Shown: positions 880 through 21,410, numbered from the stretch's first letter. The stretch is DNA of 43,972 bases from a virus (IMGVR_UViG_2681813201_000019), one strand, 5' to 3'. Translations and numbers: made by a program. Notes: a model not told the origin generated them from the letters alone.

Positions 880-1076
880 ACCAATGATCTGTGATTCGTG
901 AAAGCAGTTCGCAGAAAGATTTAATCTTTCTGCATCCACGGTTGCGTCAGATATTTCTCGCAATCCCGGAAAACTCCCGCCCTTCATCAGAATTGGGCGG
1001 GCTATACGATTCTCTCTTGACGATATTGTTGATTGGGAAAATGCACATCGTCAAAACAAACTTAAAGGTGATATAA

Positions 1077-1715
1077 ATGGTTACTAAGAACACGGAAAAT
1101 AACGCTAATAATGCACTGAACATTCTTCCCGAATCAGCAAGCACAGCTGTAGACAACGATGAAAAATATCTGTCCTTTGCATTAGTTCTCGCTATCACGA
1201 TTATGGGCAACTTAGTAAAGCTCATCGGCACAGATGGCTTCATACTTTATACCTACACCCTGCAGGACACGGCTACTGCTCGTGCTGTTTTTAATGAATT
1301 AGCCAGGCGTCTCAAAAATTTCAATCGTCAGGAGGAGGTCTACACCACCGATTCCCTCACCTTTCGAATGAAATACATTTACGGTGTTACCCTGTTCGAA
1401 CATGATAGTAAATCTATCCTTAACCTTTTTGATAAGAAGGGTTATCCAGTATTGAGTGAATCAGGAGAACCCGGTTCTCTTGATGATATGTATCTTGACA
1501 TTCAAGCCCGATTACATGGCGGCTACGCCTCAAAAAAGTTTCTTCATTTACATGAACATTGTCTGTTATCTGCACACGTTACCCCGTCTGTGGAAAAGAC
1601 GCAACGTGGTATCCTGATTAAAGCAGGCAGGAAACTCGTTTCCTTTATCTATGCAGATAATGAATCTCGCAAAAATGATATTTTCAAAGCTGTAGTAGAC
1701 GTCATTAAATCCTGA
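1077..1715 (+). CDS. Hypothetical protein (212 aa)
   Basis: Intact ORF between the recombinase and the polymerase, followed by a hairpin plus T-run; no motif recognised. Confidence 0.45.
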   Translation: MVTKNTENNANNALNILPESASTAVDNDEKYLSFALVLAITIMGNLVKLIGTDGFILYTYTLQDTATARAVFNELARRLKNFNRQEEVYTTDSLTFRMKYIYGVTLFEHDSKSILNLFDKKGYPVLSESGEPGSLDDMYLDIQARLHGGYASKKFLHLHEHCLLSAHVTPSVEKTQRGILIKAGRKLVSFIYADNESRKNDIFKAVVDVIKS

Positions 1716-1718
1716 TTC

Positions 1719-1755
1719 ATTATGCCGGGGGGGACGAACTCCCGGCATTTTTTCG
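1719..1755 (+). terminator. Putative rho-independent terminator
   Basis: GC-rich inverted repeat (tgccggg...cccggca) followed by a T-run, directly after the 1077..1715 stop. Confidence 0.45.
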
Positions 1756-1764
1756 GAGTTAACT

Positions 1765-4320
1765 ATGAGCAATAATTTGCAGGACATCCTCGCTGCCGCA
1801 TCGGGGTATCAGTCCGTGACTTCAGAGCCAGCGCTCAATCTTAAAAGACCTAAAACGCTTGATGATTATCCTGTGATACCACCTGCATCAAAAAAAGTAT
1901 CTGTTATTTCAAGTGACCTGACACTCCATATCGGTTTTGATACCGAATATGTTTTCAATCCTGAAACACAACAGAATGATATTCTGTCATATCAGAGTTA
2001 TGTTGTCTTACCCGATAATACAGGTATATCGAACATTATCTATCCACCTGACTCACAGAAAAAATCCCGGCTGTCTTTTAAGAACTTTCTCTGTCAAACG
2101 ATTACACCGCTTCTTGAAACGGGTGTGATTACAAAATGGCCCGGTATTATTAATATATATGCGCATTTCATTCGTGCGGATATCACCTCCTTTGCCAATT
2201 TCTGGTCAGACTACAAAATTCTTCTGAAAGGAATACGCGGTACTGTCAGCAGCTTCAAAAATCGTTACGGTATCGATTTTGATGAACAGCAGGAACGTCG
2301 CGTAAAGACTGAACAGATAATGTTTGACAAACGAACTTCCCCTCCGCGTTGCAGTAACGTAGCTTTCATCGATACACTGCTTATCACTCCCGGGGGTATG
2401 GGTCTGGCTGAATGTGGTGAATTACTGGGTCTTCCCAAACTGACCATTCCTGCACCTTATTCCATAACCAATATGCGTGAATATCTTCTGGGCGACAGAG
2501 CAGGGTTTGAAGCCTATGCTCTGCGGGATGCCGAGATTGCGGTTCGTTATGCTTTACAGGTTCGCAATTTTTGCGCCCGGGAGCTGATGATTGATCGTGT
2601 CCCCGCCACCATCGGGGCGATGGCAGTTTCACGGTTCACCAAAACACTTAAAGAAAACAATATGTCTCCTGAAGTCTGCCTTGGGACACACATTAAAACC
2701 CGTGAACTCTGGCTCACGGAGAAACAGGCATTCCGGACGATTAAAAACCCCGCCAGTGTTCCTTCAAGAGAGCTGTTTGAAACGTTCCCGATCAACTGTT
2801 ACCACGGCGGACGCAATGAGTGTTTTATGATGGGGGTTACACCGTCTGATCACTGGTATGACTACGATCTGGCTGGAGCGTATACCACCGGGCTATTAGA
2901 TATCCTCATACCCGATTACGGAAACATCCGCCTCAGTAAAAATCCGGACGATTACTGTGGGCATGTAATGGGATTTGCGTTTGTCACATTTCAGTTCCCG
3001 GAATCAGTTCCCTATCCCAGCCTGCCGGTTCGGACCGATCAATATGGGTTATTCTTTCCATTAAGTGGCGAATCATGGGCAACGGCACCTGAAATCGAAC
3101 TTGCTCTGTCGCTCGGGGCAGAGATGACGATCCATAATGGGATCATCGTCCCCTGGATCTGTGACACCTCCCCACATAACAGCGAATCAACATCGGTGTT
3201 TCTTCCCTTTGTTCAACAGGTCCGTGAGAACCGTAATCGCCATATTAAAGGTTCTCTGGAGGAGAAATTCTGGAAAGAAATTGGCAACTCGCTTTATGGC
3301 AAACTTGCTCAGGGCCTTCGCGCCAAAACCGCCTTTGATACTGCCCGTGGATTAAACAGATCCCTCCCACCATCATCGGTTACTCAGCCATTCTTTGCTG
3401 CGCATGTGACGGGATTTATCCGCGCCGTTGTCGGGGAACTCATGAATGCTTTGCCTTCTGATTCATCGGTTGTCAGCGTCACAACCGATGGCTTTTTGAC
3501 AAATTGCCCACTTAACAAGATAAACATGAGCGGTCCACTGTCTTCCCGCTTCCAGTCGCTGTGCGATATTGTTGATCCGGGTTCATCAATGTTGACATGT
3601 AAGCATGAGGTCAGCCAGCTTATCGCCATGAAAACCCGGGGGCAGTTAACCTATAGAGCTATTCAGGGAAAACCTGTTGTTCATGCCAGGGCTGGCGTCA
3701 AACCTCCTGCCGATATTCCACGCAGTGACTATAACGACTATATGGTAGATCTTTACCTTAATCGTTTACCCGGTCAGACGTTATCCCGAAGTACGTTGAT
3801 ATCAACGCGTGAGATGTGGCTGTCGGAAAGCGATCTGGTATCCCGGGAACAGGATATCCGTCTTAATCTGGAATTCGATTTCAAACGCCAGCCCGTACAG
3901 CCCGCCATGAATGAAGGGCATTTACTGATGTCTTCCCGCCCATGGGATAATATGGAAGAGGCTCTGCAGCAACGCTCTCTTTTCGACGACTGGCGGCAAA
4001 CGCATACACTGAAGACCCTGGCTGACTGGGATGACTGGTGTGATTTTCTCTATTGCCGGACGGTGTTTTCTGATATGAAACTAAAAGTCGGAAGCAAACG
4101 TAGTGATGATATTTTAGTCAGACTATTTCTCCGGGCGCTGACTCAGTGCCAATGGGGGCTTATGCTGAAAGATAAAAAAAGTTATTCCTGTAAAGAGGTT
4201 GCTGAATGGCTGACGTCAGAAGGCTATTCAGTAACATGTCAAAAAGCACCTGCTGGATCTCCCGGGCCCGAAGGTCGCAGTAACGTATCTTCCCCAGACG
4301 AGGTTCAATGTATTGCGTGA
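1765..4320 (+). CDS. Family-B DNA polymerase, piPolB-like (primer-independent PolB of pipolins)
   Basis: 851 aa; Exo I-like HIGFDTEY, motif A-like YDYDLAGAY, motif B KEIGNSLYGKLAQ (Kx3NSxYG), motif C-like VSVTTDGF, and KTRG in AMKTRGQ; lies beside a recombinase and a UDG-like gene at a tRNA-Leu att site. Confidence 0.8.
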   Translation: MSNNLQDILAAASGYQSVTSEPALNLKRPKTLDDYPVIPPASKKVSVISSDLTLHIGFDTEYVFNPETQQNDILSYQSYVVLPDNTGISNIIYPPDSQKKSRLSFKNFLCQTITPLLETGVITKWPGIINIYAHFIRADITSFANFWSDYKILLKGIRGTVSSFKNRYGIDFDEQQERRVKTEQIMFDKRTSPPRCSNVAFIDTLLITPGGMGLAECGELLGLPKLTIPAPYSITNMREYLLGDRAGFEAYALRDAEIAVRYALQVRNFCARELMIDRVPATIGAMAVSRFTKTLKENNMSPEVCLGTHIKTRELWLTEKQAFRTIKNPASVPSRELFETFPINCYHGGRNECFMMGVTPSDHWYDYDLAGAYTTGLLDILIPDYGNIRLSKNPDDYCGHVMGFAFVTFQFPESVPYPSLPVRTDQYGLFFPLSGESWATAPEIELALSLGAEMTIHNGIIVPWICDTSPHNSESTSVFLPFVQQVRENRNRHIKGSLEEKFWKEIGNSLYGKLAQGLRAKTAFDTARGLNRSLPPSSVTQPFFAAHVTGFIRAVVGELMNALPSDSSVVSVTTDGFLTNCPLNKINMSGPLSSRFQSLCDIVDPGSSMLTCKHEVSQLIAMKTRGQLTYRAIQGKPVVHARAGVKPPADIPRSDYNDYMVDLYLNRLPGQTLSRSTLISTREMWLSESDLVSREQDIRLNLEFDFKRQPVQPAMNEGHLLMSSRPWDNMEEALQQRSLFDDWRQTHTLKTLADWDDWCDFLYCRTVFSDMKLKVGSKRSDDILVRLFLRALTQCQWGLMLKDKKSYSCKEVAEWLTSEGYSVTCQKAPAGSPGPEGRSNVSSPDEVQCIA

Positions 4321-4738
4321 AACGCTGAACATCCTTATCCCAGGACTTTTTATGGCGTTTGATGAACGGAACATAGGTCTGGTGAAAAAACTCACTAAGT
4401 GTTGGCATCGCACGATAATTATCGCGTTCTGCTTTAGGGTCATTTCCCAGTGCAATCGCCTCCTTGTGACGACGAGCTATCTGACGGGCTGTCCCCACAT
4501 CGATTTCAGGGAATCTGCCAATACTGATACTTTTTTTGGTACCGTGGAATGTGTAGCGCAGGAGGAAACGTTTGTTACCCGTTCGACCTGAGAGACATTT
4601 GAGGCCTATGACCTCGGTATCTGATACCTCAAGCTCTGTAGATCGGGTATCTGTGTTTGCCGGAAGGGCTTTGATGGATGAATTGGTGAATCGGAAGGAT
4701 TTTTGCATATTTATCCTCATGTATCTGATTGATATCAT
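4160..4738 (-). pseudogene. P4-type integrase N-terminal fragment (arm-binding and N-terminal domains only, catalytic domain missing)
   Basis: N-terminal region resembles the P4-like integrase arm-binding/SAM-like domain (LLRYTFHGTKKSISIGRFPEIDVGTARQIARRHKEAIALGNDP... FTQYIEPRLGKIRYCDLRAREIQQVLFDML); sequence then degenerates and the ORF runs into the convergent 3' end of the polymerase gene; no R..HxxR..Y domain. Confidence 0.55.
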
Positions 4739-4788
4739 GAAAATAATATATATCTGAAGGTGTTTTTATTACGGGGCAGGATTGAAGA

Positions 4789-5529
4789 ATGGAAAAGCTA
4801 TTAGACGCGTACAAACGGATATTGCAGGAAGTTAACGCCCAGTCATTTAACCTGAATGAGGATAAATACTCAGGCGTCTTTTTACCCGTGCCGTTTGAAG
4901 AATACTGGCATTCACCGATAAAAATCATGCTGGTTGGACGTGAAACCGCAGGCTGGAATACGCTGAATGGTAAGAATACGATATCACGGGTGTTGGGACT
5001 TATACCTGACGTCACCATCGGGCAAGTGGTTGAAGAAGCTGTAGATCGTTACAGGAAACATCTTCCGGTACAAAATTATGGCACCGCCAACCTCAAATCA
5101 CGTAGCCGCTTCACGCAATATCATTTCAGGCTGGCCCGGGAGCTTAATATTCTTCCCCAGGCAATCGTGTATGCCAATCTACTGGCGTGGGATTACGACG
5201 GACTGACCCCTCTCAATCGCCCTCAAAATGAAGTGCAGGAAGTCATATTAGCCTCGCTGAAGCTACTGGCGGTACAAATTAAACACCTTGAGCCTGATTT
5301 CATCATCTTTGCATCTGGAGCCCGGAGAACAGACTACATCATAAAACAGGTGCTTACTGAGCTAGGCGGCTATGAGACTTCTTCAGTCATTCCGGGGAAG
5401 CTGTGGGAGTTCAAAACAGGTAATACAATCTGTTTCAGAATTGCCCATCCAAGGGCTATGCGCGGACACCAGAAGTACAGAGATGAGGTGATTGCACGAA
5501 TTAAGCAACTTTGTACTCAGGGTGGCTAG
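4789..5529 (+). CDS. Uracil-DNA-glycosylase-like protein (family-4-like)
   Basis: N-terminal IMLVGRETAGW resembles the UDG GE(A/G)PG motif region and C-terminal FRIAHPRAMRGH resembles the HPS motif region; assignment by motif resemblance only. Confidence 0.45.
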   Translation: MEKLLDAYKRILQEVNAQSFNLNEDKYSGVFLPVPFEEYWHSPIKIMLVGRETAGWNTLNGKNTISRVLGLIPDVTIGQVVEEAVDRYRKHLPVQNYGTANLKSRSRFTQYHFRLARELNILPQAIVYANLLAWDYDGLTPLNRPQNEVQEVILASLKLLAVQIKHLEPDFIIFASGARRTDYIIKQVLTELGGYETSSVIPGKLWEFKTGNTICFRIAHPRAMRGHQKYRDEVIARIKQLCTQGG

Positions 5530-5932: not shown

Positions 5933-6934
5933 TTACCCTCTATTGTCAAAAGGGTTCAATTCAACAGCAGCCTCTAAATGACCTGGAGCAAAATGCGCAT
6001 AACGCATAGTCATTTTTATATCGCTATGCCCCAGTATTTTTTGCAACACAAGAATATTTCCGCCCCGCATCATAAAATGACTGGCAAACGTGTGACGTAG
6101 CACATGAGTTAATTGCCCATCAGGAAGCTCGATCTTCGCTCTCTTAATTGCAGCGTCAAAAGCCTCATAACATGGTGAAAATAGCGCTCCTCGTTTTTTG
6201 GGAAGCATAGCCTGCAATTGAGGTGAAATCGGTACAGTGCGGTTCTTCTTTCCTTTAGTTTTAACAAATGTGATTCGACCGGGCAGTACTTGAGATTGCT
6301 TTAATCCTTCTGCTTCACTCCACCGAGCACCAGTCGCAAGCCCAATACGGACAACAACCCCCAAATCTTTATTCCGTGACTCATCACACGCAATCAGAAG
6401 GCGTTCAATCTCATCTACATACAGAAACGCCAGTTCCTTTTCTTCCTCACGAAACTTGCGAATACCAGTCAGGGGGTTTTCACCAGACCACTCCCCAAGG
6501 CGCTTCAGTTCGGCAAAAACAGCATGTAGATATGACTGCTCGCGATTAACGGTTGCTTCACTAAGTTTTTTCTTCCCCTTGGGATTCCATTCTCCTGATA
6601 GCCTTCTTTCCCGATAAGTGGCAAACATATTTTTGTCAAACTGAGAAGCAAATGGATCTCCCAGCCTGGAACAAATCGCCTCAAGTTTGACTTTGCGCTC
6701 TGCACCAGAGGACAAGGTTTTACCGTACATCTCAAACCAACGAGCAATCAACTCAGAAAGACGAGGACCAGAACCATCTTGAAACTCGTCTCCAACTCTA
6801 CTATTCATTAAACGGCGCTCATAAGAGAGCGCCTCACTTTTTGTCGCAAACTGTTTACGAATGCGTTTTCCCGATGCCCCGTAGGGATAACATTCGCAAA
6901 GCCATTTACCTGATGGAATCTTACGAACCGACAT
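5933..6934 (-). CDS. int: Phage integrase (P2 Int family tyrosine recombinase)
   Basis: 333 aa; TGARWSEAEGLK, ITFVKTKGKKNRTVPIS and THVLRHTFASHFMMRGGNILVLQKILGHSDIKMTMRYAHF closely resemble P2 Int; lies about 100 bp from the att repeat. Confidence 0.9.
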   Translation of the reverse strand: MSVRKIPSGKWLCECYPYGASGKRIRKQFATKSEALSYERRLMNSRVGDEFQDGSGPRLSELIARWFEMYGKTLSSGAERKVKLEAICSRLGDPFASQFDKNMFATYRERRLSGEWNPKGKKKLSEATVNREQSYLHAVFAELKRLGEWSGENPLTGIRKFREEEKELAFLYVDEIERLLIACDESRNKDLGVVVRIGLATGARWSEAEGLKQSQVLPGRITFVKTKGKKNRTVPISPQLQAMLPKKRGALFSPCYEAFDAAIKRAKIELPDGQLTHVLRHTFASHFMMRGGNILVLQKILGHSDIKMTMRYAHFAPGHLEAAVELNPFDNRG

Positions 6935-6939
6935 TTTAG

Positions 6940-7287
6940 TTACTTATCACATAAATCAAATGCAGCCTTAGTGACATCCCCTAGGCTCTTTTTTAACCCT
7001 GGGGCGGCATCATTATCTAGCCAAAATGGATTATTGTTATCTAACGGTAACGCACCAAATGTTTTACCTTTTATTCGAGCCAAACCTGTAAGTGCATATA
7101 ACTTATTATCGTCAAAATTCATCACATAAGGATTACCATCAAGACACTGTAATTGAACCTCATCAGTATTAAATGGCCATACCCCATTGAAACTCTCACG
7201 TTCAATAGTTTTAAAAGGCATTGCGACGGCGGAAAAAGAAAACATAGATAAAAAAGTAACTAATAGTTGAACCTTTTTTACTTTCAT
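6940..7287 (-). CDS. Small secreted protein of unknown function (predicted signal peptide)
   Basis: N-terminus MKVKKVQLLVTFLSMFSFSAVA is signal-peptide-like; sits in the int to repressor cargo position. Confidence 0.5.
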   Translation of the reverse strand: MKVKKVQLLVTFLSMFSFSAVAMPFKTIERESFNGVWPFNTDEVQLQCLDGNPYVMNFDDNKLYALTGLARIKGKTFGALPLDNNNPFWLDNDAAPGLKKSLGDVTKAAFDLCDK

Positions 7288-7316
7288 ATCATTACCTCAA
7301 TTTAGCTCAAGTAAGA

Positions 7317-7967
7317 TTACAAATTAAAAAACGCCCTAGAAATGACACCGCCTACCAAAACCCCTACGCAGATAAAGAATATTATTTCTTTTGGATAAAG
7401 TCGGATTAATTCTGAAGCACGAAGTCGGACTTCTGGTAAGGTCGAACTCTCTGTGTGGCTTGATGCCGATTGTTGCTCTAACCACGACAATGCAGACTGT
7501 AACTGAGAACGAGTAAGATCGTTTAAACGTCCTGTACCGAAATTGATATGGCAATACCGCAGAAGTTTTTGTCGAAGTCCACAGTCTTCACTGTTACGTA
7601 GTAATAAACTTACAAGAGCCTTACAGGCATCATGATCTTTACATCGCTCAAGCATTGCATGCAGAAAACTCTCCGCTGTTTTATATTGATTTACTGTCAT
7701 ATCATCAATACCAGCTACACCAATCTCCGCATGTACTTTTTGCCAAATAATAAACGCTTCAGTATTGCTAGCTTCTGCAATAGCAGCAACCAAGCTATTC
7801 AGCTCCTTACGCTGAGCCTTAAGCAAAGGGCGATCGTCATCATCATTATTCGAAGGGATTGCGATATTGACGGTATGAGAACCATCATATCGCTCTATCT
7901 GAATATTCTTTTCGTGAAAATCACGCCCAGCAACGCGATTGTTTGAACCGTTTGAGTTGACGGCCAT
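7317..7967 (-). CDS. Hypothetical membrane-anchored protein (216 aa)
   Basis: C-terminal hydrophobic segment IIFFICVGVLVGGVI; N-terminal motif NNRVAGRDF resembles the C-terminal tail of the adjacent repressor. Confidence 0.45.
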   Translation of the reverse strand: MAVNSNGSNNRVAGRDFHEKNIQIERYDGSHTVNIAIPSNNDDDDRPLLKAQRKELNSLVAAIAEASNTEAFIIWQKVHAEIGVAGIDDMTVNQYKTAESFLHAMLERCKDHDACKALVSLLLRNSEDCGLRQKLLRYCHINFGTGRLNDLTRSQLQSALSWLEQQSASSHTESSTLPEVRLRASELIRLYPKEIIFFICVGVLVGGVISRAFFNL

Positions 7968-7982
7968 GTCACCTCCCTACTA

Positions 7983-8387
7983 TCACCTACCCTTAGTTTC
8001 GTTATAGTCACGACCAGCGATACGGTTATTACCACCAGAAATATTTAACTCACGTCCTGATAGCTGAGTTTCCTTTTCACTGATCGCACCTTTTAAAGCC
8101 CCAATCACCGCGTTTTTCACATCTAACGAAGCTGCTCGAAAGCGAGTAATCAACTCCTGCTCATCATCGTTATAAGTTTCAGGTGAGTGAATTCCCAACA
8201 CAACATACTGAACATCAAGGCCAAAACGAGACAGCGCTGCCAAATACGCAGCATCAGGAAAGCTATCTCCTTTCTCATATCTAAGCTGAGTTAGCTTTTT
8301 GACTCCACCAATGTCGCTCATGGCAACTTGACTAAGTCCCAATCTTTCCCTTTCCTCACGCAACCGCTGACCAATATCATTTTTCAT
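7983..8387 (-). CDS. Immunity repressor, XRE-family HTH (C/CI-like)
   Basis: N-terminal HTH (QRLREERERLGLSQVAMSDIGGVKKLTQLRYEKGDSFP); divergent from the early operon, the usual P2/186 immunity layout. Confidence 0.75.
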   Translation of the reverse strand: MKNDIGQRLREERERLGLSQVAMSDIGGVKKLTQLRYEKGDSFPDAAYLAALSRFGLDVQYVVLGIHSPETYNDDEQELITRFRAASLDVKNAVIGALKGAISEKETQLSGRELNISGGNNRIAGRDYNETKGR

Positions 8388-12209: not shown

Positions 12210-15032
12210 ATGACGGCAGAGTACATCAGGGACTGGCAACAACCGCGCCACGCAGTGGGGCGTGAAGGAACGGGGATCCCCGCTCCTGAATCCGCGCTTT
12301 CCTCCTGGCTGGATGCCTACCGGGTAGAGAACGAGCGCCGCCAGGAAATGGCTGATGCGGCGTTCTCCGCCACGCCGCTGGGCAACCTGATTAATAAAAG
12401 CCTGGACGCACAGGAAAAACAGGACAAAACCATCACACTGGCAGGAGACGCCAGAAAACAGGCACGCGGCGCAGTGGATGAAGCCATGACCTCGCTGCGC
12501 CTGCTGCCGTCCTATCTGCGCGATCCGCTTATTCGCCACCTCTCCTTCCTGCGCAAAAAACAGGAAGCCGATCGCCGGAAAGGCAAAAAGAGCTGGCAGG
12601 CGGAACGCTATGCACGCGGAACCCTGCGCAAAATATTCGAACGTCTGGACCGCACCGATCACCGCTGGCTGACACCGGGTTATCGCTCCCTTGCCGGACG
12701 CGAACGCCTGGACGATTTGCTTTACCTGCCGCAGCTCAACAAACACCAGATACAGACGCTGGCCACCATGACGGCGGCGATGTTCAGCAGCACCTTCGAA
12801 AAACTCTGCGATGGCTTTGGCGCGACTGATGGCGAACTGACCATGGATGTAACGCTGAAGGCGTATCAGATGCTGGCCCGCATGGCGTTACACCTGCACG
12901 CCATGCCTCCACATTATGACGCACTGACAACAGACAAAGACCGGAGGAACGAACCGGACACAGAGCTGCTGCCGGGCGCAATCCTTCGCCTGACCTGTGC
13001 GGAATGGTGGAAACGCAAACTGTGGCTGTTACGTTGCGAGTGGAGAGAAGAACAACTCCGCGCCGCCTGTCTGGTTTCCAGAAAAACATCGCCCTATCTG
13101 AGCCAGGACGCGTTAAGCGAGTTTCGCGCACAGCGCGAGAAAACACGCGATTTCCTGAAAAGTTTCATGCTGGAAAACGAAGACGGGTTCACGATTGATC
13201 TCGAGACAGTGTATTACGCGGGAGTAAGTAACCCGGTTCACCGTAAGGCAGAAATGATGGCCACCATGAAGGGACTGGAACTTCTGGCCGAAGCCCGTGG
13301 CGACAGAGCGGTGTTTCTGACTGTCACCTGCCCGTCAAAATACCACGCAACAACGGAGAACGGTCATCCGAACCCCAAATGGAACGGGGCCACCATGCGC
13401 GACTCCAGCGATTACCTGGTTAACACGTTTTTTGCGGCGGTCCGCAAAAAACTGAACCGCGACGGCCTGCGCTGGTATGGCATCCGCACGGTGGAGCCTC
13501 ACCATGACGGCACCGTGCACTGGCATATGATGGTCTTTGCTCATCCGGAAGAAATCGACAGCATCGTGGCCATCACCCGCGATATTGCCATTCAGGAAGA
13601 CCGCCACGAGCTGGGCAATGATATTACTCCGCGCTTTAAAGTGGAGTATGTCGACGGCTCAAAAGGCACACCAACCAGCTATATCGCGACCTACATCGGG
13701 AAAAACCTGGACAGCCGCGCCGTGGATGGCATCGACCCGAAAACGGGCAAACCACGCGTTGACCACGAAACCGGAAAATCAATGGCCGAGAGCGTGGAGC
13801 GCGCCATCGGTTGGGCACGCCTTCACCGGGTCCGCCAGTTCCAGTTCTTTGGCATCCCCTCCCGTCAGGTGTGGCGTGAACTCCGCCGCCTTGCCAGCCA
13901 GATGGCACGCAACCCGGAAGGCCCGCAACGGCTGAAGGATGACGCAATGGATGCGGTACTCGCTGCCGCTGATGCCGGATGTTTTGCCACCTACATAGAG
14001 AAACAGGGCGGCGTACTTGTTCCACGCAAAGACTACCTGATTCGCACCGCCTACGACCTCGCCGATGAGCTGAACGATTACGGCGAACAGAGTGTACAGA
14101 TTTACGGGATCTGGTCACCACTCATCGGGGAATCCTCCCGTGTGTGCACGCACCCGGATAACTGGAAGCTGGTAAGACGTAAACCGGAACAGGAAGGCAG
14201 CGCCCACGAAAATGGTTTTGACCTTCAGGGCGGCCCTGCCGCCCCTTGGACTCGTGGCAATAACTGTCCCCGTGTACAGGAAACGGACAACAACGGGACA
14301 GAACAGCCGGAAGAACGGCCAGCACCGTGGCCGCAGCTCCCTGACGGCGTTGAAGTGAACGAATGGATGCGCTCACTGAAACGGCACGAACGCCGGGCGC
14401 TGATGCGTTCGCTTCGTGACAAACAGGCAAAAAACAGCAGTGATGAAATGCAGAGCTGGACACAGAGCCGCAAACAGCAGCGGCCTTTGCCTGATAACCA
14501 CGAATTACTCGCTAAAGAATGGCGGGAGTCTGCTGAATCTCTCGGCCTGCATATCGGTGAACAACAGATGCAGCACCTGTTACGGGGCGGCAGTCTGTAC
14601 GTTGACGGCAGCATCATTGCACCGCAGGGGTTTGAAATTGTACGCAAACCGGATACCCGCCCGGACAGCCGAATCACGCAGCTCTGGCAGCGCCTGAGCC
14701 GTAATCACGGCGTAAGCAGCACGGAGATCCGCCATAACCCGGTCGCCAGCTATCTGGCGCAACTGGGGGCATCAGACCCTGAAGCCGCCGCACGCCTGGC
14801 ATCCACACTTCAGCAGGACCAGAACACCATGAAAACACCCGTTACCGTGCTTTCTGACATGCTGCGCGCCATCCGCGACACAGAGCACGCACAGAGAATC
14901 AGTGAAACCACTGAACGCGCCCGCCGCAAAGCAGACCTGCTGCGGGGTGGCCTGACCATTGGAAACAAAAAACAGACAGAAACGGGATTCACAAATCCCG
15001 TAAATGAGCAAAAAACGCGCCGCGATATATGA
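12210..15032 (+). CDS. A: Replication initiation endonuclease, gpA-like (rolling-circle HUH initiator)
   Basis: 940 aa; HUH motif HWHMMVF and tyrosine pair in TSYIATYIGKN typical of the P2 A / phiX174 A superfamily; expected position after the early genes. Confidence 0.85.
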   Translation: MTAEYIRDWQQPRHAVGREGTGIPAPESALSSWLDAYRVENERRQEMADAAFSATPLGNLINKSLDAQEKQDKTITLAGDARKQARGAVDEAMTSLRLLPSYLRDPLIRHLSFLRKKQEADRRKGKKSWQAERYARGTLRKIFERLDRTDHRWLTPGYRSLAGRERLDDLLYLPQLNKHQIQTLATMTAAMFSSTFEKLCDGFGATDGELTMDVTLKAYQMLARMALHLHAMPPHYDALTTDKDRRNEPDTELLPGAILRLTCAEWWKRKLWLLRCEWREEQLRAACLVSRKTSPYLSQDALSEFRAQREKTRDFLKSFMLENEDGFTIDLETVYYAGVSNPVHRKAEMMATMKGLELLAEARGDRAVFLTVTCPSKYHATTENGHPNPKWNGATMRDSSDYLVNTFFAAVRKKLNRDGLRWYGIRTVEPHHDGTVHWHMMVFAHPEEIDSIVAITRDIAIQEDRHELGNDITPRFKVEYVDGSKGTPTSYIATYIGKNLDSRAVDGIDPKTGKPRVDHETGKSMAESVERAIGWARLHRVRQFQFFGIPSRQVWRELRRLASQMARNPEGPQRLKDDAMDAVLAAADAGCFATYIEKQGGVLVPRKDYLIRTAYDLADELNDYGEQSVQIYGIWSPLIGESSRVCTHPDNWKLVRRKPEQEGSAHENGFDLQGGPAAPWTRGNNCPRVQETDNNGTEQPEERPAPWPQLPDGVEVNEWMRSLKRHERRALMRSLRDKQAKNSSDEMQSWTQSRKQQRPLPDNHELLAKEWRESAESLGLHIGEQQMQHLLRGGSLYVDGSIIAPQGFEIVRKPDTRPDSRITQLWQRLSRNHGVSSTEIRHNPVASYLAQLGASDPEAAARLASTLQQDQNTMKTPVTVLSDMLRAIRDTEHAQRISETTERARRKADLLRGGLTIGNKKQTETGFTNPVNEQKTRRDI

Positions 15033-15108
15033 AGCGCGCATAAAACAGGCAAAAACGGGATTTCAGAATCCCGTAAACGATTAATTAATCAACATAAGGA
15101 AAAGCGAC
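14975..15108. promoter_or_regulatory. Two 20-bp palindromes ACGGGATT-N4-AATCCCGT about 70 bp apart, immediately upstream of the parM-like gene (candidate parC/operator)
   Basis: Perfect 8-bp inverted arms with 4-bp spacers at about 14981..15000 and 15053..15072; no T-run, so not typical intrinsic terminators. Confidence 0.4.
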
Positions 15109-16068
15109 ATGAAAATTTGTATCGATGACGGCTCCACCAACATCAAGCTGGCATGGACTGAGAACGGCGAACGCCGCAACGCCATCAGCCCGAACAGCTT
15201 CAAGTCGGAATGGTCTGCGCCGTTCGGTGGCACGCAGCCCGCGAACTACATGCTTGATGGCGTGCGCTATGGTTTTGATCCGGTCAGCGATCGCTTTGTC
15301 CAGACGACCGACACGCAATACCAGTACAGCGATGTGAATGTCATTGCCATTCATCACGCGCTGGTCAAATCAGGCATCACACCACAGGAAGTGGATGTGG
15401 TTGTCACCCTGCCACTGAGCGAATATTTCGACACAAACGCACAGCCGGACATGGCCAACATCAACCGCAAAAAAGCAAACGTCATGCGCCCGGTGGCGTA
15501 CCAGAACGGAAAAGCATTCACTATCCGTAACGTACGGGTTATGCCTGAATCCATTCCGGCTGGTTTTAAAGCACTGGCTGACATGAGTCCGTTTGAATCC
15601 CTGCTGATTGTGGATTTAGGCGGAACCACGCTGGATGTGGCAAAGGTTCAGGGACAACTGGCAGGTATCAGCCAGGTGTTTTGCGATCCACACGTAGGCG
15701 TTTCCCTGATGGCCGATGCCGTACTGTCGGTGATGGCCACTAACGGTATGCGTACCAGTCACCACATCGCCAATACCATTATCGAACATCGCCATGATGA
15801 AGCCTGGCTGCGCCAGCACATCCACAATGACGCGCATTACGACAGCCTGATAGCGGTTATTCGTGAAAAGGAAGAAACACTGAAACAACGCGTGATCCGC
15901 GCGCTGGCGGGTTTTTCGGGTTACGGGCGGGTGATGGTTGTCGGTGGCGGGGCGGAGATTGTGGCACCCGCTATCCGCGAAGCCTGCGGAGTTAATGCGA
16001 CTTTCATCGCGGACGGGGTGCCACAGTTTGCTCTGGTTAATGGGCTGTACGCAATGGACAAGGAGTAA
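15109..16068 (+). CDS. parM: ParM/StbA-like actin-family segregation ATPase
   Basis: 319 aa; N-terminus MKICIDDGSTNIKLAW against R1 ParM MLVFIDDGSTNIKLQW, and similarity continues along the length (YSDVNVIAIHHAL, RRKANVMRPV, LLIVDLGGTTLDV, MVVGGGAE, LVNGLY). Confidence 0.85.
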   Translation: MKICIDDGSTNIKLAWTENGERRNAISPNSFKSEWSAPFGGTQPANYMLDGVRYGFDPVSDRFVQTTDTQYQYSDVNVIAIHHALVKSGITPQEVDVVVTLPLSEYFDTNAQPDMANINRKKANVMRPVAYQNGKAFTIRNVRVMPESIPAGFKALADMSPFESLLIVDLGGTTLDVAKVQGQLAGISQVFCDPHVGVSLMADAVLSVMATNGMRTSHHIANTIIEHRHDEAWLRQHIHNDAHYDSLIAVIREKEETLKQRVIRALAGFSGYGRVMVVGGGAEIVAPAIREACGVNATFIADGVPQFALVNGLYAMDKE

Positions 16069-16072
16069 ACCA

Positions 16073-16384
16073 ATGACGACACCAACCAGACGGATAAGTT
16101 TCTATCTGAAGCCCGCCGCCGTCAAGAACGAAGGCAAAGCATGCGCCTGGCTGGACAGCCTTACACCAGAAGCCCGCAAAAGTGGTCAACGTGTGGCTTT
16201 TCTGGCCGGACTGGCACTTATGAAAATTAATCCGGCAGAGGCTTACCGACTGGCTGCATGGGCTGACGATGAAGCGTTATCCCTGACACAAACCAGGACA
16301 GAACGCCCCGTGTCACAGCCAGCACCAACCGCACAGATAACCAGTCAGATGGCCGGAAATATCCGGGCGTTATTTCCCGAATAA
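16073..16384 (+). CDS. parR: ParR-like centromere-binding protein
   Basis: 103 aa from the internal ATG with AAGGAG Shine-Dalgarno; RRISFYLKP...ACAWLDSL...AFLAGLAL...NIRALFPE parallels R1 ParR (RRTIAFKLNP...VCDTLDSI...AALTAGLAL...ILRSLFPKE). Confidence 0.7.
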   Translation: MTTPTRRISFYLKPAAVKNEGKACAWLDSLTPEARKSGQRVAFLAGLALMKINPAEAYRLAAWADDEALSLTQTRTERPVSQPAPTAQITSQMAGNIRALFPE

Positions 16385-16447
16385 CACAACATCAGGGCGC
16401 ATCCGCCCTGATGACTTTAACCCGGGAACATAAACAAGGGGGACACA

Positions 16448-16780
16448 ATGCAACACATTGACAGAGAAAAAGCGCAGCGACTGATTGAGCGGATGGAAGC
16501 GCTGGCGCAAGAAGAAAATGTCAACATCCAAAAAATAGCTGAATGTGGCCAGATAGTTCTTCGTCGTGAAAAAGACCTCAAACAACTGATGTCTGGCAAA
16601 ACCAGCAAAACATGGGCTTCAGGCGAGGAAACGATTTATTGCAGCTTCTGCAATAAATCCCAGTACGAAGTCACAAAGGTGATTGCTGGACCGTCTGTTT
16701 ACATCTGCAATGAGTGCGTGGATTTGTGCAATGAAATTATCAGGAGAGAAGTGGCAGACAAAAAGGGAAAAAACACATGA
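16448..16780 (+). CDS. ClpX N-terminal zinc-binding-domain (C4 zinc finger) protein, no AAA+ module
   Basis: 110 aa; C-terminal [39 protein letters not shown] nearly matches the ClpX zinc-binding domain ([33 protein letters not shown]); N-terminal half is charged/helical. Confidence 0.75.
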
Positions 16781-17091
16781 ACAGAAAACAAAAACAAGAG
16801 TTGAAATACTTTTTACGTAAAGAAATTGCCAGGCTTGAAGATGCAGAATCACGATCATCAGAAATTCCGTTCGGAATGGATATCAACGACGCCCGTATGC
16901 TCCAGGCATACCGTATAGCTCAGGCTGCACTACAGGCAAAACCGTCAGATGGACTGGTTAGAGCAGTACGTTTCTATGAACTGGTAAAGCGTGAGAATCC
17001 GCCAACCGAAACCGGAGCATGGAAAGACGCTGTTGACTGGGTGCTCAGAGAAGCTTGCCAGACTGTAAACATTGGTATCAAAGGAGAGTGA
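16777..17091 (+). CDS. Hypothetical protein (104 aa)
   Basis: ORF translationally coupled to the ClpX-ZBD gene; ends ...NIGIKGE. Confidence 0.45.
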
Positions 17092-17093
17092 GA

Positions 17094-17585
17094 GTGCAGA
17101 TTTCACCGGTTACTCTTCGTGTTGCGAAGGCATTTATATCCAGACATCACCGACACAATAAACCCCCGGTGGGGCATAAATTCAGCATTGGTCTGAGAAA
17201 TGATGCCGGAGAATTGATAGGTGTGGCGACAGCCGGTCGACCTGTTGCACGACATTTGGATGATGGATTAACGCTTGAAGTAAATCGCACATGTACCACA
17301 GGAGAACGCAACGCTAACAGCGCGCTTTATGGTGCTGTCTGGCGGGCAGCAAAAGCTATGGGTTATCAACGTTGTATTACGTACACCCGGGCAGATGAAT
17401 CAGGAGCATCTCTTCGCGCAGCTGGTTTTGTTCGTGTGAAAGAGCTTCCTCCAAGAAAAAGCTGGGCGGAATCAAGCGTCGCCCTGCGGAGTAAACGCGA
17501 TCCAGTCGGAAACGGTGGTGTTCCTCGTGTGCTCTGGGAAATCAGGAGAATGAGTACCACTGGTATTCGCATCAAAGGAGAGTGA
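17094..17585 (+). CDS. Hypothetical protein, possibly GNAT-fold (GTG start)
   Basis: GTG 7 nt after AAGGAG; C-terminal region ...NANSALYGAVWRAAKAMGYQRCITYTRADESGASLRAAGF weakly resembles an acyl-CoA N-acyltransferase fold; ends ...GIRIKGE. Confidence 0.4.
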   Translation: MQISPVTLRVAKAFISRHHRHNKPPVGHKFSIGLRNDAGELIGVATAGRPVARHLDDGLTLEVNRTCTTGERNANSALYGAVWRAAKAMGYQRCITYTRADESGASLRAAGFVRVKELPPRKSWAESSVALRSKRDPVGNGGVPRVLWEIRRMSTTGIRIKGE

Positions 17586-17586
17586 T

Positions 17587-17850
17587 ATGGCAACTTTGAC
17601 AAAAAAAGAACGGGCATGGTTGAATGAATTACAGGACGTTCTTGATCGCTGCCCATCACCGAAAAAAATTGGTTTTTACACCATTGGCGATAAAAGCATT
17701 TACCTGTATGACCTGCGCCGCATGGATGAAATCATGGAGGCTCTTGATAATCGTTCGTCAATGGATTGGTGTGTTGCTGTTCATGATATGAATGCAGGGT
17801 TTGATGAAAAGATTTTGTTCCCCTCATCAGTTGAAAGCACAGCAGGATAA
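17587..17850 (+). CDS. Hypothetical protein (87 aa)
   Basis: ORF in the same operon. Confidence 0.45.
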   Translation: MATLTKKERAWLNELQDVLDRCPSPKKIGFYTIGDKSIYLYDLRRMDEIMEALDNRSSMDWCVAVHDMNAGFDEKILFPSSVESTAG

Positions 17851-17860
17851 GGACTAACAC

Positions 17861-18121
17861 ATGACAACTTTCACCGACAAAGAACTGATTAAAGAAATCA
17901 AAGAGCGCATAGGCAGCCTGGACGTTCGAGACAATATTGAGCGCCGTGCTTATGAAATTGCACTGGCATCACTGGAAGCAGAGCCAGTAGCATGGATGCA
18001 TGTAAATAACGGCATCGGAATACCAGCAATAACAAGGAGTAAAGAGGTTGCAGAGAGTTGGTTATCAAAAGGCTGGTATGTCCAACCCTTGCATCTAGCC
18101 CAGCCTGCATCAAAGCTATAG
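17861..18121 (+). CDS. Hypothetical protein (86 aa)
   Basis: Last ORF of the cargo operon, followed by a terminator. Confidence 0.45.
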   Translation: MTTFTDKELIKEIKERIGSLDVRDNIERRAYEIALASLEAEPVAWMHVNNGIGIPAITRSKEVAESWLSKGWYVQPLHLAQPASKL

Positions 18122-18130
18122 AAATGAGCC

Positions 18131-18160
18131 AAAACGCCCTCTTCCAGGGCGTTTATTTTA
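18131..18160 (+). terminator. Rho-independent terminator closing the cargo operon
   Basis: Hairpin aaacgccct-cttcc-agggcgttt followed by a T-rich run. Confidence 0.55.
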
Positions 18161-18161
18161 A

Positions 18162-18260
18162 TGCACAATAGTGCACAAATTTGCACAATTTTTTTGAACG
18201 ACTTTTTGCCCTTCCGGCCCCCGTGGCGGCTGGATCCGTCAAGGATCCGTGCGTGCACAA
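18162..18260. repeat. TGCACAA iterons (three copies at 10-bp spacing plus a fourth) and a GGATCCGT tandem pair in the cos-proximal region
   Basis: atGCACAAtagtGCACAAatttGCACAAttttttt at about 18162..18188; gGATCCGTcaaGGATCCGTgcgTGCACAAaaaaa at about 18231..18260. Confidence 0.4.
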
Positions 18261-18612
18261 AAAAACGCGTTTTTTCTGCGCGCAGGTGACGGGGGAACAG
18301 CCCGCGTTTCAGGGGGTAAATAGCGTTCCCTTAACGATGTCGCAGCGACACGACAGAATGGCCGTATTTCTCACGCTGAGCGTGAAAAATACGTGAGGGA
18401 TTCTGATTTGATGGGGTGAAAGGTAAGGCCGTCAAAATCGCACTGAGGCGGCGAGAACATGCAGTCAACGCGGTGGGATTGCGTAAGAGTCTGACCGTCG
18501 ATGGTGGCGATAAACTGGAAGGCGTCGTGAAATTATCTGACTGATACAGGAGCTGGAGAGTCGGGGCATAAATTTTTTATGCCCCGGCGAAGCAGCAGAC
18601 AAGCGAAGCGCG

Positions 18613-19659
18613 TCAGGATGTGGGCTGGATGTCTAACAGTGCGTAAGGGTTAAAGCGGATCACCTCTTCGCCAAGCCAGTCATTGATGTGCTTCATGGCC
18701 TCCATGACGGGCATCAGCTCGTTAATTGCGTAAACTCGCGCGGCCTTCTCCACATCACCAAACGCACTTTTTTCACCCGGCATCGCCCCCATCAGTTGCG
18801 GCGGAACGCGGTGCGCAGCCAGCACATCATCACGGGATGCCGCCTTAACATTCATGAACTCATCCTTTGCGGTGATCTGCTGGAACGGCAAAATTTGCAC
18901 CCCCTCTTTGCCCCCGTTGGGCGCATGAATGAGCACGTTTTTAAACGCACCACCACCACGCGCGCCCTGTAACGTTTCTTTCAGGGAGTCCATGCTTTCG
19001 CGGTTTACCTGCGCTGCACCAATGTAGATGATGCACCCGGCGTGGGAGCCGTTGTCGTAGTACAGTTTTCTGAACATGTCCGCCGAATGAGAAAGGCTGG
19101 CCGAGAGTAATGCGCCAAGATATTCCGGCATGCCGTAGATTTCCTGATTAATATCCGGATTCATCAGATGGCACACTTTGCCAGGGCGAAACTGAAACGC
19201 GTCCTTGCCATCCTGCACATACCACCATGATTCAAGATCGCTTCCGCGTCGCATGTATTTCGCCAGTGCGTGCCGTAATTTAAGCGGTTCGCCGAGCATA
19301 TTGCTTCGAAGCTCAAGGAATGCGTTACCGAACACAAACCAGTCCAGCGCCAGCGCCGAGAAATCCTGCCGGGAAAGCAGCGGGTGCGGAATATAGCAGC
19401 CGAGCAATACATTGCGCTTAAAGTAAAGCGCAGACTGATGCCAGGACGTTTGCCGGGCAGCTCTTGCCAGACCGTACCAGTCTACCGGGGTTTCATACCA
19501 CCGCCCGTTATCAGCACAGTACATATTGTCCAGCAGGTCATGCCCGGTCAGGCGATAAGGACCATCAAATGTGAATGCACTGAGCGATGATTCTTTCCTG
19601 AGCGCATCAGCGAGATCAATGCGTGAACTCATGCGCACTTTTTTATTTTTTCTGCTCAT
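18613..19659 (-). CDS. Q: Portal protein (gpQ)
   Basis: 348 aa, P2 gpQ-like in size and position, adjacent to the large terminase and divergent from O. Confidence 0.85.
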   Translation of the reverse strand: MSRKNKKVRMSSRIDLADALRKESSLSAFTFDGPYRLTGHDLLDNMYCADNGRWYETPVDWYGLARAARQTSWHQSALYFKRNVLLGCYIPHPLLSRQDFSALALDWFVFGNAFLELRSNMLGEPLKLRHALAKYMRRGSDLESWWYVQDGKDAFQFRPGKVCHLMNPDINQEIYGMPEYLGALLSASLSHSADMFRKLYYDNGSHAGCIIYIGAAQVNRESMDSLKETLQGARGGGAFKNVLIHAPNGGKEGVQILPFQQITAKDEFMNVKAASRDDVLAAHRVPPQLMGAMPGEKSAFGDVEKAARVYAINELMPVMEAMKHINDWLGEEVIRFNPYALLDIQPTS

Positions 19660-21410
19660 CAGAACTCCATAACCGTGAAACGCTCGTTTTCTCCTTCGCC
19701 GCCAATCGGTTCGTTAATGACAGCAAGCATGGTTGCCCACGCAAGGTCGCCGTGGCTGATCCCCCTCGCGCGGTCCGTTTCGTAAGTGATAAAGCCGCCC
19801 GGTGTTTTCACCTTACGCACGGCGTTAAAGGCCGCGACCAGCTCGCGTTCGGCGCGATCGTATTCCCACCGCCCGGCACGCATTATTTGCAGCATTTTCA
19901 GTACCAGCGACCGTTTTGATGACAGCGTGAAGGTGTACGGAATAGCAGCAGGGAAAAAACGTTTCACTATCTGATAAACAGCCTCCCCGTTCCCGCCCGT
20001 CACATCAATGCCGATGTGTTCCACGTTGTAGCGATACGTGAACTCTTCAATGACTCTGGCCTGTTCTTCAAACTCCAGCCCCTGAACGCGTCGCGTCTCC
20101 ACCGTTCGAAAACGGCCACCAGGAACAGCCGGAGGAACCACCACGGACACAGCGCCGCTGTCGCCGTTGCCACTGCTGCCGTTTGCGTCATACCCAATCC
20201 ATACCGGACGATTCCCCATCGGGCGGGGAGCAAAAGGTTTCCAGTCTTTCCAGTCGTCGTATCCGTCAACACCGCAGCCAATCAGGATATTCAGGTTAAA
20301 TGCCGATTCCCCTTCGCGAACAAACTCACACATATAGAGATTGAGGAACTCGTCTTCGGTATTTTCATCACGAATTTCGTCGATATCGGTGTGTTTCCAG
20401 CCGTGATTAACCACATCTTCCAGCGTGACAATTTGCCGCCACGTCCGGTCAGGGCAGATAAGCCCGTTATGCAGCGTTTTCCAGTCCACAGAAAAACGCT
20501 GGCGTTTATGCGAGGCCTTTTTCTCGTTCCAGCGGTCGCCGTTCCAGTAGGCGTATGCCTCGTGCGTTTCGGTGGATGGCGTGGAGAAGTAGGTGCGCCG
20601 CAGTCCGCTGAGGGTTGCCATAGCGCCAGCCACCTTGCGCAGTTCAGCAAAGCGACTGACCCAGAAAAATTCATCAAAATAAAAATTGCCCGTATAGGAC
20701 TGTGCCGACGCAGCAGAAGTGCCGAGAAAATGCAGCTCTGCGCCGTTGGAGAGGATGATTTTATCGCCCCCTTTCAGCTCCACATCAACTTCAGCCGCGG
20801 CCTTCTGAATAATGCTTTTAAACTGGAACGCCTGACGACGCGACGCAGACAAAAAAATCTGGTTACGCTGGTAAGGTTGCGCCACATCGTCACGCAGCGC
20901 CATCAGCAGTGCTTCCTGTGCAAAATACCAGGTCGCCCCAATCTGTCGGGATTTCAGGATCATCCTGTTACGTATCCCGGCTTCCCTGCAAAGGGTCAGG
21001 GAGTCAAACCAGCCCCGCTGATGCCACTCCAGCCTGCTGATGATTTTTTCCCGCAGTGCGGCAATCTGTTCCGGCGTGAAATGATTTTTGAGTTTTTTCG
21101 CCCGGCCTTTCTTTCCTGCGGCCATCACATCCGGCTGGCCATCATGTAGCTTTTTAAGCTGCCGGGTCAGCAGGTCTATTTCCTTAAAGTCACCGCCTGT
21201 TTTATTCTGTTTTTCAGTAAGCTGGATGAGGCGCGCATCGATGGACTGCGTGACACGCTGCACGGGTGGCGTTTCATCCCACTGGTCACGTTTTTTCCAC
21301 GCATAAATCGTGTTCGGGTTTATTCCCATCAGACGTGATATTTCTGCGGGCGGATAACCCTGCCAGTAAAGTTGCCGCGCACGCTGGCGCACAAAAGCGT
21401 CCTGAATCAT
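19659..21410 (-). CDS. P: Terminase large subunit (gpP)
   Basis: 583 aa; start overlaps the portal gene; terminase ATPase/nuclease in the P2 P position. Confidence 0.85.
   Translation of the reverse strand: MIQDAFVRQRARQLYWQGYPPAEISRLMGINPNTIYAWKKRDQWDETPPVQRVTQSIDARLIQLTEKQNKTGGDFKEIDLLTRQLKKLHDGQPDVMAAGKKGRAKKLKNHFTPEQIAALREKIISRLEWHQRGWFDSLTLCREAGIRNRMILKSRQIGATWYFAQEALLMALRDDVAQPYQRNQIFLSASRRQAFQFKSIIQKAAAEVDVELKGGDKIILSNGAELHFLGTSAASAQSYTGNFYFDEFFWVSRFAELRKVAGAMATLSGLRRTYFSTPSTETHEAYAYWNGDRWNEKKASHKRQRFSVDWKTLHNGLICPDRTWRQIVTLEDVVNHGWKHTDIDEIRDENTEDEFLNLYMCEFVREGESAFNLNILIGCGVDGYDDWKDWKPFAPRPMGNRPVWIGYDANGSSGNGDSGAVSVVVPPAVPGGRFRTVETRRVQGLEFEEQARVIEEFTYRYNVEHIGIDVTGGNGEAVYQIVKRFFPAAIPYTFTLSSKRSLVLKMLQIMRAGRWEYDRAERELVAAFNAVRKVKTPGGFITYETDRARGISHGDLAWATMLAVINEPIGGEGENERFTVMEF

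Follow-up and report, generated by a model that had tools for sequence, protein, structure and literature searches.

The segment from position 15,033 to 18,160 of the viral sequence IMGVR_UViG_2681813201_000019 holds seven genes between the replication gene gpA and the portal gene gpQ. The whole stretch of 43,972 nucleotides (nt) that was analysed, hereafter called the window, carries a P2-like prophage in its integrated state, which is of the P88 type (genus Xuanwuvirus). Besides parM and parR, the seven genes comprise five small genes designated here as g3 to g7 (Table 1). I read this block as a mosaic accessory region of independently inherited modules in the gpA-gpQ hotspot, probably forming the tail of the early operon, with the module roles proposed below. 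For this reading as a whole, I estimate a probability of roughly 65%.

The breakpoints of the region were mapped by blastn against eight P88-like phage loci. The left constant flank, which consists of gpA, parM, and parR, ends at 16384-16439, and the right constant flank starts at 18147-18162, or at 18095 in P88. Within the slot, P88 has only g3 and g4 in common with the window, and the stretch 17088-18094 is missing. PhiR44_2 has g3 to g6 in common and is without g7. In P88_4B11, Shae_phiSM, 520873, and 569R5, unrelated genes follow parR. The last five genes also recur separately in lambdoid phages, phage-plasmids, and other P2-like phages. In particular, copies of g5 and g6 that are 93-100% identical lie in a lambdoid siphovirus (nin-type region) and in a P22-like phage (early-left operon), where they adjoin Ead/Ea22-like genes.

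Are the modules equally common in bacterial genomes? The prevalence was counted in 5426 complete Escherichia coli genomes. It was found that parMR is present in 1307 genomes, g5 in 153, g3 together with the first part of g4 in 87 (at least 80% coverage), and the whole block in 39 (at least 80%).

The ends of g5 give a further hint. The 15-nt sequence ATCAAAGGAGAGTGA is found exactly twice in the window, as a direct repeat (0.04 expected), and g5 lies between the copies. Each copy combines the last codons of one gene with the ribosome-binding site (RBS) of the next. Similar gene ends encoding (I/G)KGE before the stop codon occur in lambdoid and P22-like phages (Kapi1). Thus, the copies of ATCAAAGGAGAGTGA look like module-boundary sequences where recombination could exchange modules. 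The genes g5 to g7 would come from a pool of small early genes that circulates among lambdoid phages, phage-plasmids, and P2-like phages through exchange at such short conserved junctions of gene ends and RBSs.

The initial annotation of the window took the seven genes for one co-adapted accessory system for maintenance, exclusion, or host take-over, working as a unit. The genes are indeed co-directional and tightly packed with two translationally coupled junctions and a single terminator, and an identical seven-gene block is found in several E. coli lineages, including O145 and UTI89/NU14. However, the modules are found apart from one another in P88, PhiR44_2, other Xuanwuvirus, lambdoid phages, phage-plasmids, and other P2-like phages, the prevalence of parMR and that of the full block differ more than 30-fold, and exact boundary repeats lie on both sides of g5. 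The breakpoints and the unequal prevalence show separate modules, and it is highly improbable that the block works as one system.

The slot itself is a known hotspot. A study of 18,150 P2-like prophages from E. coli examined the gpA-gpQ locus beside cos, which carries old and tin in P2 (Rousset et al. 2022, PMC9122126). According to the same study, a putative partition system is present at the hotspot in about one quarter of P2-like phages, the hotspot is enriched in defence systems, and the arrangements listed in a supplementary table include 'StbA + Plasmid_stab_B + zf-C4_ClpX + hypothetical x3' (PMC9122126). The placement of the block in the variable old/tin slot by the initial annotation agrees with this published map. 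The annotation was also right about the flanks (gpA upstream and the portal gene downstream on the - strand), about the seven co-directional genes closed by a terminator, which the open reading frames (ORFs), the RefSeq coding sequences (CDSs), and a hairpin with a T-rich tail all confirm, and about the absence of any canonical P2 gene among the seven. Its ParM-like, ParR-like, and ClpX-zinc-binding-domain-only calls were upheld by Pfam, and those for ParM and the ClpX domain by structure matches as well. The hotspot and its partition genes are already in the literature, and the status of a new system is not supported. Thus, the apparent seven-gene system resolves into ordinary phage mosaicism within an already mapped hotspot.

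Since parM-parR is constant in all eight P88-like phage records, this pair belongs to the backbone of the lineage and is not cargo. The initial annotation had named conservation as core genes in most P2-like phages as a finding that would speak against its proposal; parM and parR, two of the seven, go part of the way towards this by their constancy among the P88-like phages.

It was revealed that the cassette is a bona fide R1-type type II ParM/ParR pair, as judged from sequence and profile comparisons. The ParM protein matches the Pfam families StbA_N (6.9e-82, 273 bits) and ParM C-terminal (2.1e-68, 230 bits), both far above the cut-offs, and its residues 2-316 match the structure of R1 ParM (1mwk) with an E-value of 2e-92. 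The motifs DDGST, DLGGTTLD, and GGGAE for phosphate and adenosine binding are kept. The protein is 46-52% identical to ParM of thousands of enterobacterial conjugative plasmids. The ratio of nonsynonymous to synonymous polymorphism (pN/pS) is about 0.1 for parM, indicating purifying selection, and 0.2-0.45 for parR. No literature on ParM in P88 was found.

The ParR protein matches Pfam Plasmid_stab_B (PF10784) with 1.6e-25 and 89 bits, compared with a cut-off of 25. Many ParR alleles exist, from 98% down to 39% identity, next to a ParM that hardly varies. The alleles agree in an N-terminal region of about 65 amino acid residues (aa) and in the C-terminal tip, NI(R/Q)xLFPE, and differ in the hypervariable linker between them. 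In 569R5, the switch to another parR allele begins at window position 16127. The ParR tail aligns with the C-terminal KKNAMKLIN of IncFII ParR; in R1, the C-terminal tail of ParR is the ParM-binding peptide. Among 72,556 plasmid records, only 7 match a ParR of this type, and the pair thus represents a phage-specific ParMR lineage.

Upstream of parM, I found a candidate parC or operator. Two 42-nt direct repeats lie 73 base pairs (bp) apart, one inside the last gpA codons (14966-15007) and the other in the intergenic region (15039-15080). Each repeat holds a 20-bp palindrome, ACGGGATT-N4-AATCCCGT (14982-15001 and 15055-15074), which has two matches in the window against 0.16 expected; none of 100 shuffles reached two. 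Related IncFII and IncI plasmids have two repeat blocks upstream of parM. I infer from this arrangement that ParR may bind the two repeats. They are kept in all eight P88-like phages, a conservation with little power at about 95% identity between the phages. A-tract phasing was also considered for this region, and the argument was dropped because of the irregular spacings (4, 13, 13, 9, 8 ...).

What does a partition cassette do in such a phage? In the complete E. coli genomes, 1453 of the 1455 parMR places are chromosomal. The presence of parMR in about one quarter of these genomes, almost always in an integrated state, argues for the handling of replicating phage circles over simple plasmid maintenance. 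In this model, ParR would bind the two palindrome-bearing repeats, which straddle the gpA stop codon, and ParM filaments, captured by the conserved ParR tail, would push apart or position circular extrachromosomal phage genomes, the product of gpA after infection or induction. It is possible that ParMR also spreads unintegrated copies to both daughter cells while lysogeny is being established.

It has been proposed that ParMR lets these phages live as low-copy plasmid prophages (PMC9122126); the rest of the block would then be passengers. A genuine R1-type pair under purifying selection would suit this lifestyle, and one complete P88-like genome has in fact been deposited as a circular plasmid. 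This record, NZ_CP148288.1 (PLSDB), is a 34,461-bp non-mobilizable 'plasmid' from an E. coli isolate from a cat, and it carries int, gpA, parM, parR, and the structural genes. An episomal prophage and an induced replicative form are both possible explanations of the record. In contrast, nearly all parMR places are chromosomal as counted above, the copy in the window is itself integrated and accompanied by an integrase gene, and in the second plasmid record examined, the prophage has inserted into a larger element, a phage-plasmid. The replication of P2 needs gpA from the early operon, and the immunity repressor should silence this operon in a lysogen, which by analogy also counts against plasmid life. 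Thus, the data argue against stable plasmid lysogeny as the usual state, and stable plasmid maintenance is judged less likely as the role of ParMR than the handling of phage circles. Overall, I regard a plasmid-prophage life, with the rest of the block as passengers, as improbable.

The other plasmid record is pCREC455-3 (NZ_CP183151.1). It was rejected as evidence of plasmid life, because the prophage sits inside a larger phage-plasmid with its own ParM/ParR. The P88-like prophage, with parMR and g3 to g6, lies in a 129-kb phage-plasmid with RepB, the second ParM/ParR, Ref, Icd, and ash genes. A similar block, 98.0% identical over the same 2822 nt, is also present on the chromosome of this strain. 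The remaining plasmid records matching this ParR are mostly 227 kb to 1.4 Mb in size.

How is the block expressed? A tool scan and a relaxed consensus scan found no sigma-70-like promoter of the block's own; the best score upstream of parM was 7 of 12 consensus matches, and there was none upstream of g3. Over the whole stretch from gpA to g7, including the gaps between gpA and parM and between parR and g3, the scans gave neither a promoter nor a terminator on the + strand. Since neither a promoter nor a + strand terminator separates these genes, I infer co-transcription with the early replication operon. The block is probably transcribed rightward by read-through as an extension of this operon.

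The g3 gene encodes a protein with an N-terminal region of about 58 aa followed by a C4 zinc-binding domain (ZBD) of the ClpX type. Its residues 64-99 match PF06689 (2.8e-18, 66 bits against a cut-off of 27), and residues 59-104 match the structure of the E. coli ClpX ZBD (1ovx, 2.5e-19) with 31 of 46 residues identical and all four cysteines kept. There is no AAA+ module in the 110 residues; the NCBIfam clpX models match at model positions 6-52 and 3-49 only, with about 50 bits against cut-offs of about 360-370. Full-length homologues were found only in Escherichia and Salmonella. In these homologues, the ZBD is nearly invariant and ClpX-like, and the N-terminal 58 or so residues diverge. Recent capture of host clpX DNA was considered and rejected, since the 144 nt coding for the ZBD match 221 genomes and not all 5426. 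Because the ZBD is conserved while its coding DNA no longer matches clpX, the protein sequence is held near ClpX by selection and not by recent capture.

Relatives of g3 with 45-54% identity occur in the same gpA-gpQ slot of P2-like phages without parMR. A distant search for the ZBD-coding DNA placed 105 of the 233 matches on plasmids. Two E. coli plasmids, NZ_CP027369.1 and NZ_CP021720.1, have ZBD-only genes that are 75-80% identical to the g3 ZBD at the DNA level. In these phage-plasmid-like elements, ead/Ea22-like genes immediately precede the ZBD-only gene, and DUF551 or DUF4752 genes follow it. The idea that g3 is specifically coupled to gpA was weakened, because g3-type genes also exist in phage-plasmids beside ead/Ea22-like genes.

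On its own, the ClpX ZBD forms dimers and competes in vitro for the docking of adaptors, and in trans it inhibits RssB-mediated sigma-S degradation (PMC7226468). By analogy, the most economical mechanism for g3 would be to serve as a decoy on which adaptors and substrates dock or to pair with ClpX in a mixed dimer. This would keep SspB/RssB-type adaptors and ZBD-dependent substrates off ClpXP. The translation of g3 is coupled to that of g4. I tentatively suggest that g3 and its relatives are a temperate-phage family that mimics the docking ZBD of ClpX, is made early, and reprograms ClpXP by titrating adaptors or ZBD-dependent substrates or by forming mixed ClpX dimers; this is a possibility well short of an even chance. 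If true, the mimics might stabilise sigma-S or a phage protein, or might block ClpX-dependent rival phages such as Mu, and with the g3 family, phages would encode a regulator that controls a host AAA+ protease by domain mimicry. No report of phage-encoded ZBD-only proteins or of such a regulator was found in the searchable literature. The recurrence of ZBD-only proteins in several kinds of temperate elements, with sequences near ClpX, suggests mimicry of a protease docking site.

The growth of Mu is ClpX-dependent, and MuA and lambda O use the ZBD. Part of g3 to g7 might therefore serve anti-phage exclusion in the lysogen like old and tin, with the ZBD-only protein blocking ClpX-needing phages such as Mu. 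The enrichment of the slot in defence systems (PMC9122126) and the inhibition of adaptor-mediated ClpXP degradation by free ZBD in vitro (PMC7226468) would fit such a role. On the other hand, a PADLOC search (E <= 0.01) gave no match to the seven proteins, the scans revealed no promoter belonging to the block, and the same genes lie elsewhere in early lytic operons of the nin-type or early-left kind, which is a better fit to take-over or counter-defence on infection. Expression for defence in the lysogen is thus unlikely, and there is no sign of the exclusion system that the initial annotation had considered.

The g5 protein belongs to the XF1762 family (NCBIfam NF045478, 1.3e-60, 203.3 bits against a cut-off of 50). 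It also matches PHROG 1384, 'Mom-like' (9.5e-42), while its score for Pfam Mom (PF25680), 22.2 bits, is under the cut-off of 27.1. An AlphaFold2 model (mean predicted local distance difference test score 84.5) has a GNAT fold. The best PDB match of the model is Mu Mom (8bv8, TM-score 0.74, E 2.7e-8), compared with about 0.6 for generic GNATs, and hhalign related the g5 and Mu Mom sequences at an E-value of only 0.015. Mu Mom transfers glycine from Gly-tRNA to adenine N6 (PMC13219725). The residues listed for Mom are R111, S124, D149, and R151 as well as H58, Y59, and Y159, and R111, S124, and R151 are among those needed; deletion of the helix-turn-helix (HTH)-like insertion at about 175-209 abolishes momylation (PMC13219725). 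In the alignments, H19 of g5 corresponds to H58 and R65 to R111, and S76 falls at S122/S124 in an ambiguous register. The family is large: g5 has 5186 relatives, and the 24 aligned ones are 70-92% identical to it across enterobacterial genera. It is 93% identical to Kapi1_007 of a P22-like phage. No literature on the XF1762 family was found. The g5 protein is probably an acyl or aminoacyl transferase, and XF1762 is a large, strongly conserved Mom-like GNAT branch.

The remaining three genes are g4, g6, and g7. The g4 protein (PHROG 26213/660) is 94% identical to P88 gp20 over 104 aa, and its C-terminal 75 residues are 59% identical to a protein of the lambdoid phage 689R5. The N-terminus of g7 (PHROG 5117/660/60) is 58% identical to a 689R5 protein annotated as 'Ea22 protein'; this gene is missing from both PhiR44_2 and P88. 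The two proteins have one short motif in common. For g6, a fold search in PDB and BFVD gave no informative match. Thus, of the 'four unknown genes' in the initial annotation, the description stands for g6, which has no recognisable relative of known fold, and gives way to an XF1762 Mom-like GNAT for g5 and to the Ead/Ea22 pool for g4 and g7.

Besides the circular NZ_CP148288.1 record, several points weigh against the mosaic reading or the roles proposed within it. The tight packing and the single terminator would also fit selection for co-expression. The promoter scan was a simple consensus search, which a weak or activator-dependent promoter could escape. There are only two candidate ParR sites, compared with two clusters of short repeats upstream of parM in an IncFII plasmid; in classical R1 parC, the iterons number about ten. 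Palindrome covariation could not show among the related phages because of their high similarity: a contig scan for divergent parM loci gave only loci with 97-98% identity, and the divergent ParR alleles keep the same N-terminus and are hence uninformative on this point. The N-terminal extension of g3 makes possible a role beyond or other than a decoy. As for g5, the tool alignments cover the N-terminal half, and by eye the equivalent of D149 is kept but R151 and Y159 are replaced. Its 163 residues are without the HTH-like insertion of Mom, and the model has a low-confidence loop of about 20 residues at about 125-144. Because the essential insertion and, by eye, R151 and Y159 are missing, DNA modification by g5 is doubtful, and the protein is not filed as Mom.

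The features of the locus are listed in Table 1. The segment is 97.5% identical to phages PhiR44_2 and P88, 100% identical to E. coli O145 chromosomes, and 99.9% identical to UTI89/NU14. Between gpA and gpQ, seven tightly packed ORFs on the + strand fill 15109-18121, and exactly these seven CDSs are annotated by RefSeq in a 100%-identical E. coli O145 chromosome. The intergenic distances are 4, 63, -4, 2, 1, and 10 nt in order; parR begins 4 nt after parM, and the g4 start overlaps the g3 stop (ATGA). A Shine-Dalgarno-like sequence lies upstream of every one of the seven starts. Compared with 0.58 in gpA, the GC content of the block is lower, declining along it to 0.53 and then to 0.48.

Table 1. 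Positions of the genes and sequence elements in and around the gpA-gpQ slot of the window
Feature	Position	Strand	Description
gpA replication gene	12210-15032	+	940 aa, Pfam Phage_GPA 1.7e-130
Candidate centromere/operator	14966-15080		Two 42-nt direct repeats
parM	15109-16068	+	Actin-fold segregation ATPase, 319 aa
parR	16073-16384	+	Predicted adaptor/centromere-binding protein, 103 aa
Perfect hairpin	16390-16413	+	10-bp stem, 4-nt loop, between parR and g3, -18.4 kcal/mol
g3	16448-16780	+	ClpX zinc-binding-domain-only protein, 110 aa
g4	16777-17091	+	Ead/Ea22 mosaic pool protein, 104 aa
Boundary repeat ATCAAAGGAGAGTGA, copy 1	17077-17091	+	g4 last codons (..IKGE, stop) and g5 RBS
g5	17094-17585	+	GTG start; XF1762-family Mom-like GNAT-fold protein, 163 aa
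Boundary repeat ATCAAAGGAGAGTGA, copy 2	17571-17585	+	g5 last codons (..IKGE, stop) and g6 RBS
g6	17587-17850	+	Alpha/beta protein, 87 aa
g7	17861-18121	+	Ead/Ea22 mosaic pool protein (N-terminal type), 86 aa
Intrinsic-terminator-like hairpin and T-rich tail	18132-18162	+	Closes the block
Portal gene gpQ	18613-19659	-	
Terminase gene	19659-21410	-	

The stem-loop of the terminator (18132-18154, -13.4 kcal/mol) is followed by ATTTTAAT. The perfect hairpin after parR coincides with the left recombination junction of the variable slot. No U-run follows it on the + strand, but there is a T-rich tail on the - strand, and its candidate roles are an mRNA 3' stabiliser, an attenuator, or a recombination junction. 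A search of 14500-18700 against Rfam gave no match at E <= 0.1. By analogy with P2, cos must lie in 18160-18612; a 19-nt query for P2 cos gave no match within 3 mismatches.

Two other regions of the window were noted. A second tyrosine integrase (67-879, + strand, Phage_integrase 2.3e-22) precedes three ORFs (212, 851, and 246 aa) that have no match in Pfam or PADLOC. This region (67-5529, + strand) has a GC content of 0.41-0.50 and directly adjoins the integrase gene of the prophage (5933-6934, - strand); possibly, a small integrative island or satellite and the prophage are arranged in tandem here. Two genes on the - strand occupy 6940-7967, a lysogeny-side cargo position between this integrase gene and the HTH repressor (7983-8387). 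One has a DUF2511 match (2.3e-6), and the other is a 216-aa ORF (7317-7967) without a Pfam or PADLOC match.

Compared with the old/tin cargo of P2, the block has the same position between gpA and gpQ, adjoining cos, but no homology to old, tin, or PADLOC defence proteins. Unlike the variable cargo, parMR is a constant flank of the slot in the P88 lineage.

The ZBD of g3 resembles the N-terminal ZBD of E. coli ClpX (1ovx, 2ds5-2ds8) in sequence and in the four cysteines. In contrast to ClpX, g3 has no AAA+ unfoldase, has the N-terminal extension that ClpX lacks, and is carried by temperate phages and phage-plasmids. The g5 model is similar to Mu Mom in its GNAT fold and in the predicted equivalents of H58 and R111. 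However, g5 is shorter (163 aa versus 231-241 aa), is without the insertion at 175-209, and belongs to the separate, highly conserved XF1762 family, which is found in early rather than late regions.

In comparison with parMRC (stbAB) of R1/R100, the phage ParM can be aligned with R1 ParM from one end to the other, and its identity to the IncFII (R1/R100-type) plasmid protein is 46.5%. The order of parM and parR with repeats upstream is alike, as are the N-terminal region and the tail of ParR. On the other hand, the phage ParR has 103 aa instead of 116 and is 26% identical to IncFII ParR, and the phage cassette lies directly after gpA in an integrating P2-like prophage. The candidate centromere consists of two palindrome-bearing 42-nt repeats and not of two short-iteron clusters, with no recognisable promoter between them.

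A closer functional parallel may be AlpAC/alpS of the integrated Corynebacterium glutamicum prophage CGP3, with an early-induced actin-like protein and a co-transcribed adaptor that binds upstream of its own operon (PMC4446434). AlpAC links excised circular phage DNA to filaments and is required for efficient replication (PMC4446434). The host phylum and the phage type differ, and the phage pair described here is an R1-type ParMR located after a rolling-circle initiator gene. Nevertheless, both prophages are integrated and combine an actin-like ATPase with a DNA-binding adaptor, proven or predicted, whose site lies upstream, and it is by analogy with AlpAC that the handling of phage circles was adopted as the functional model for ParMR.

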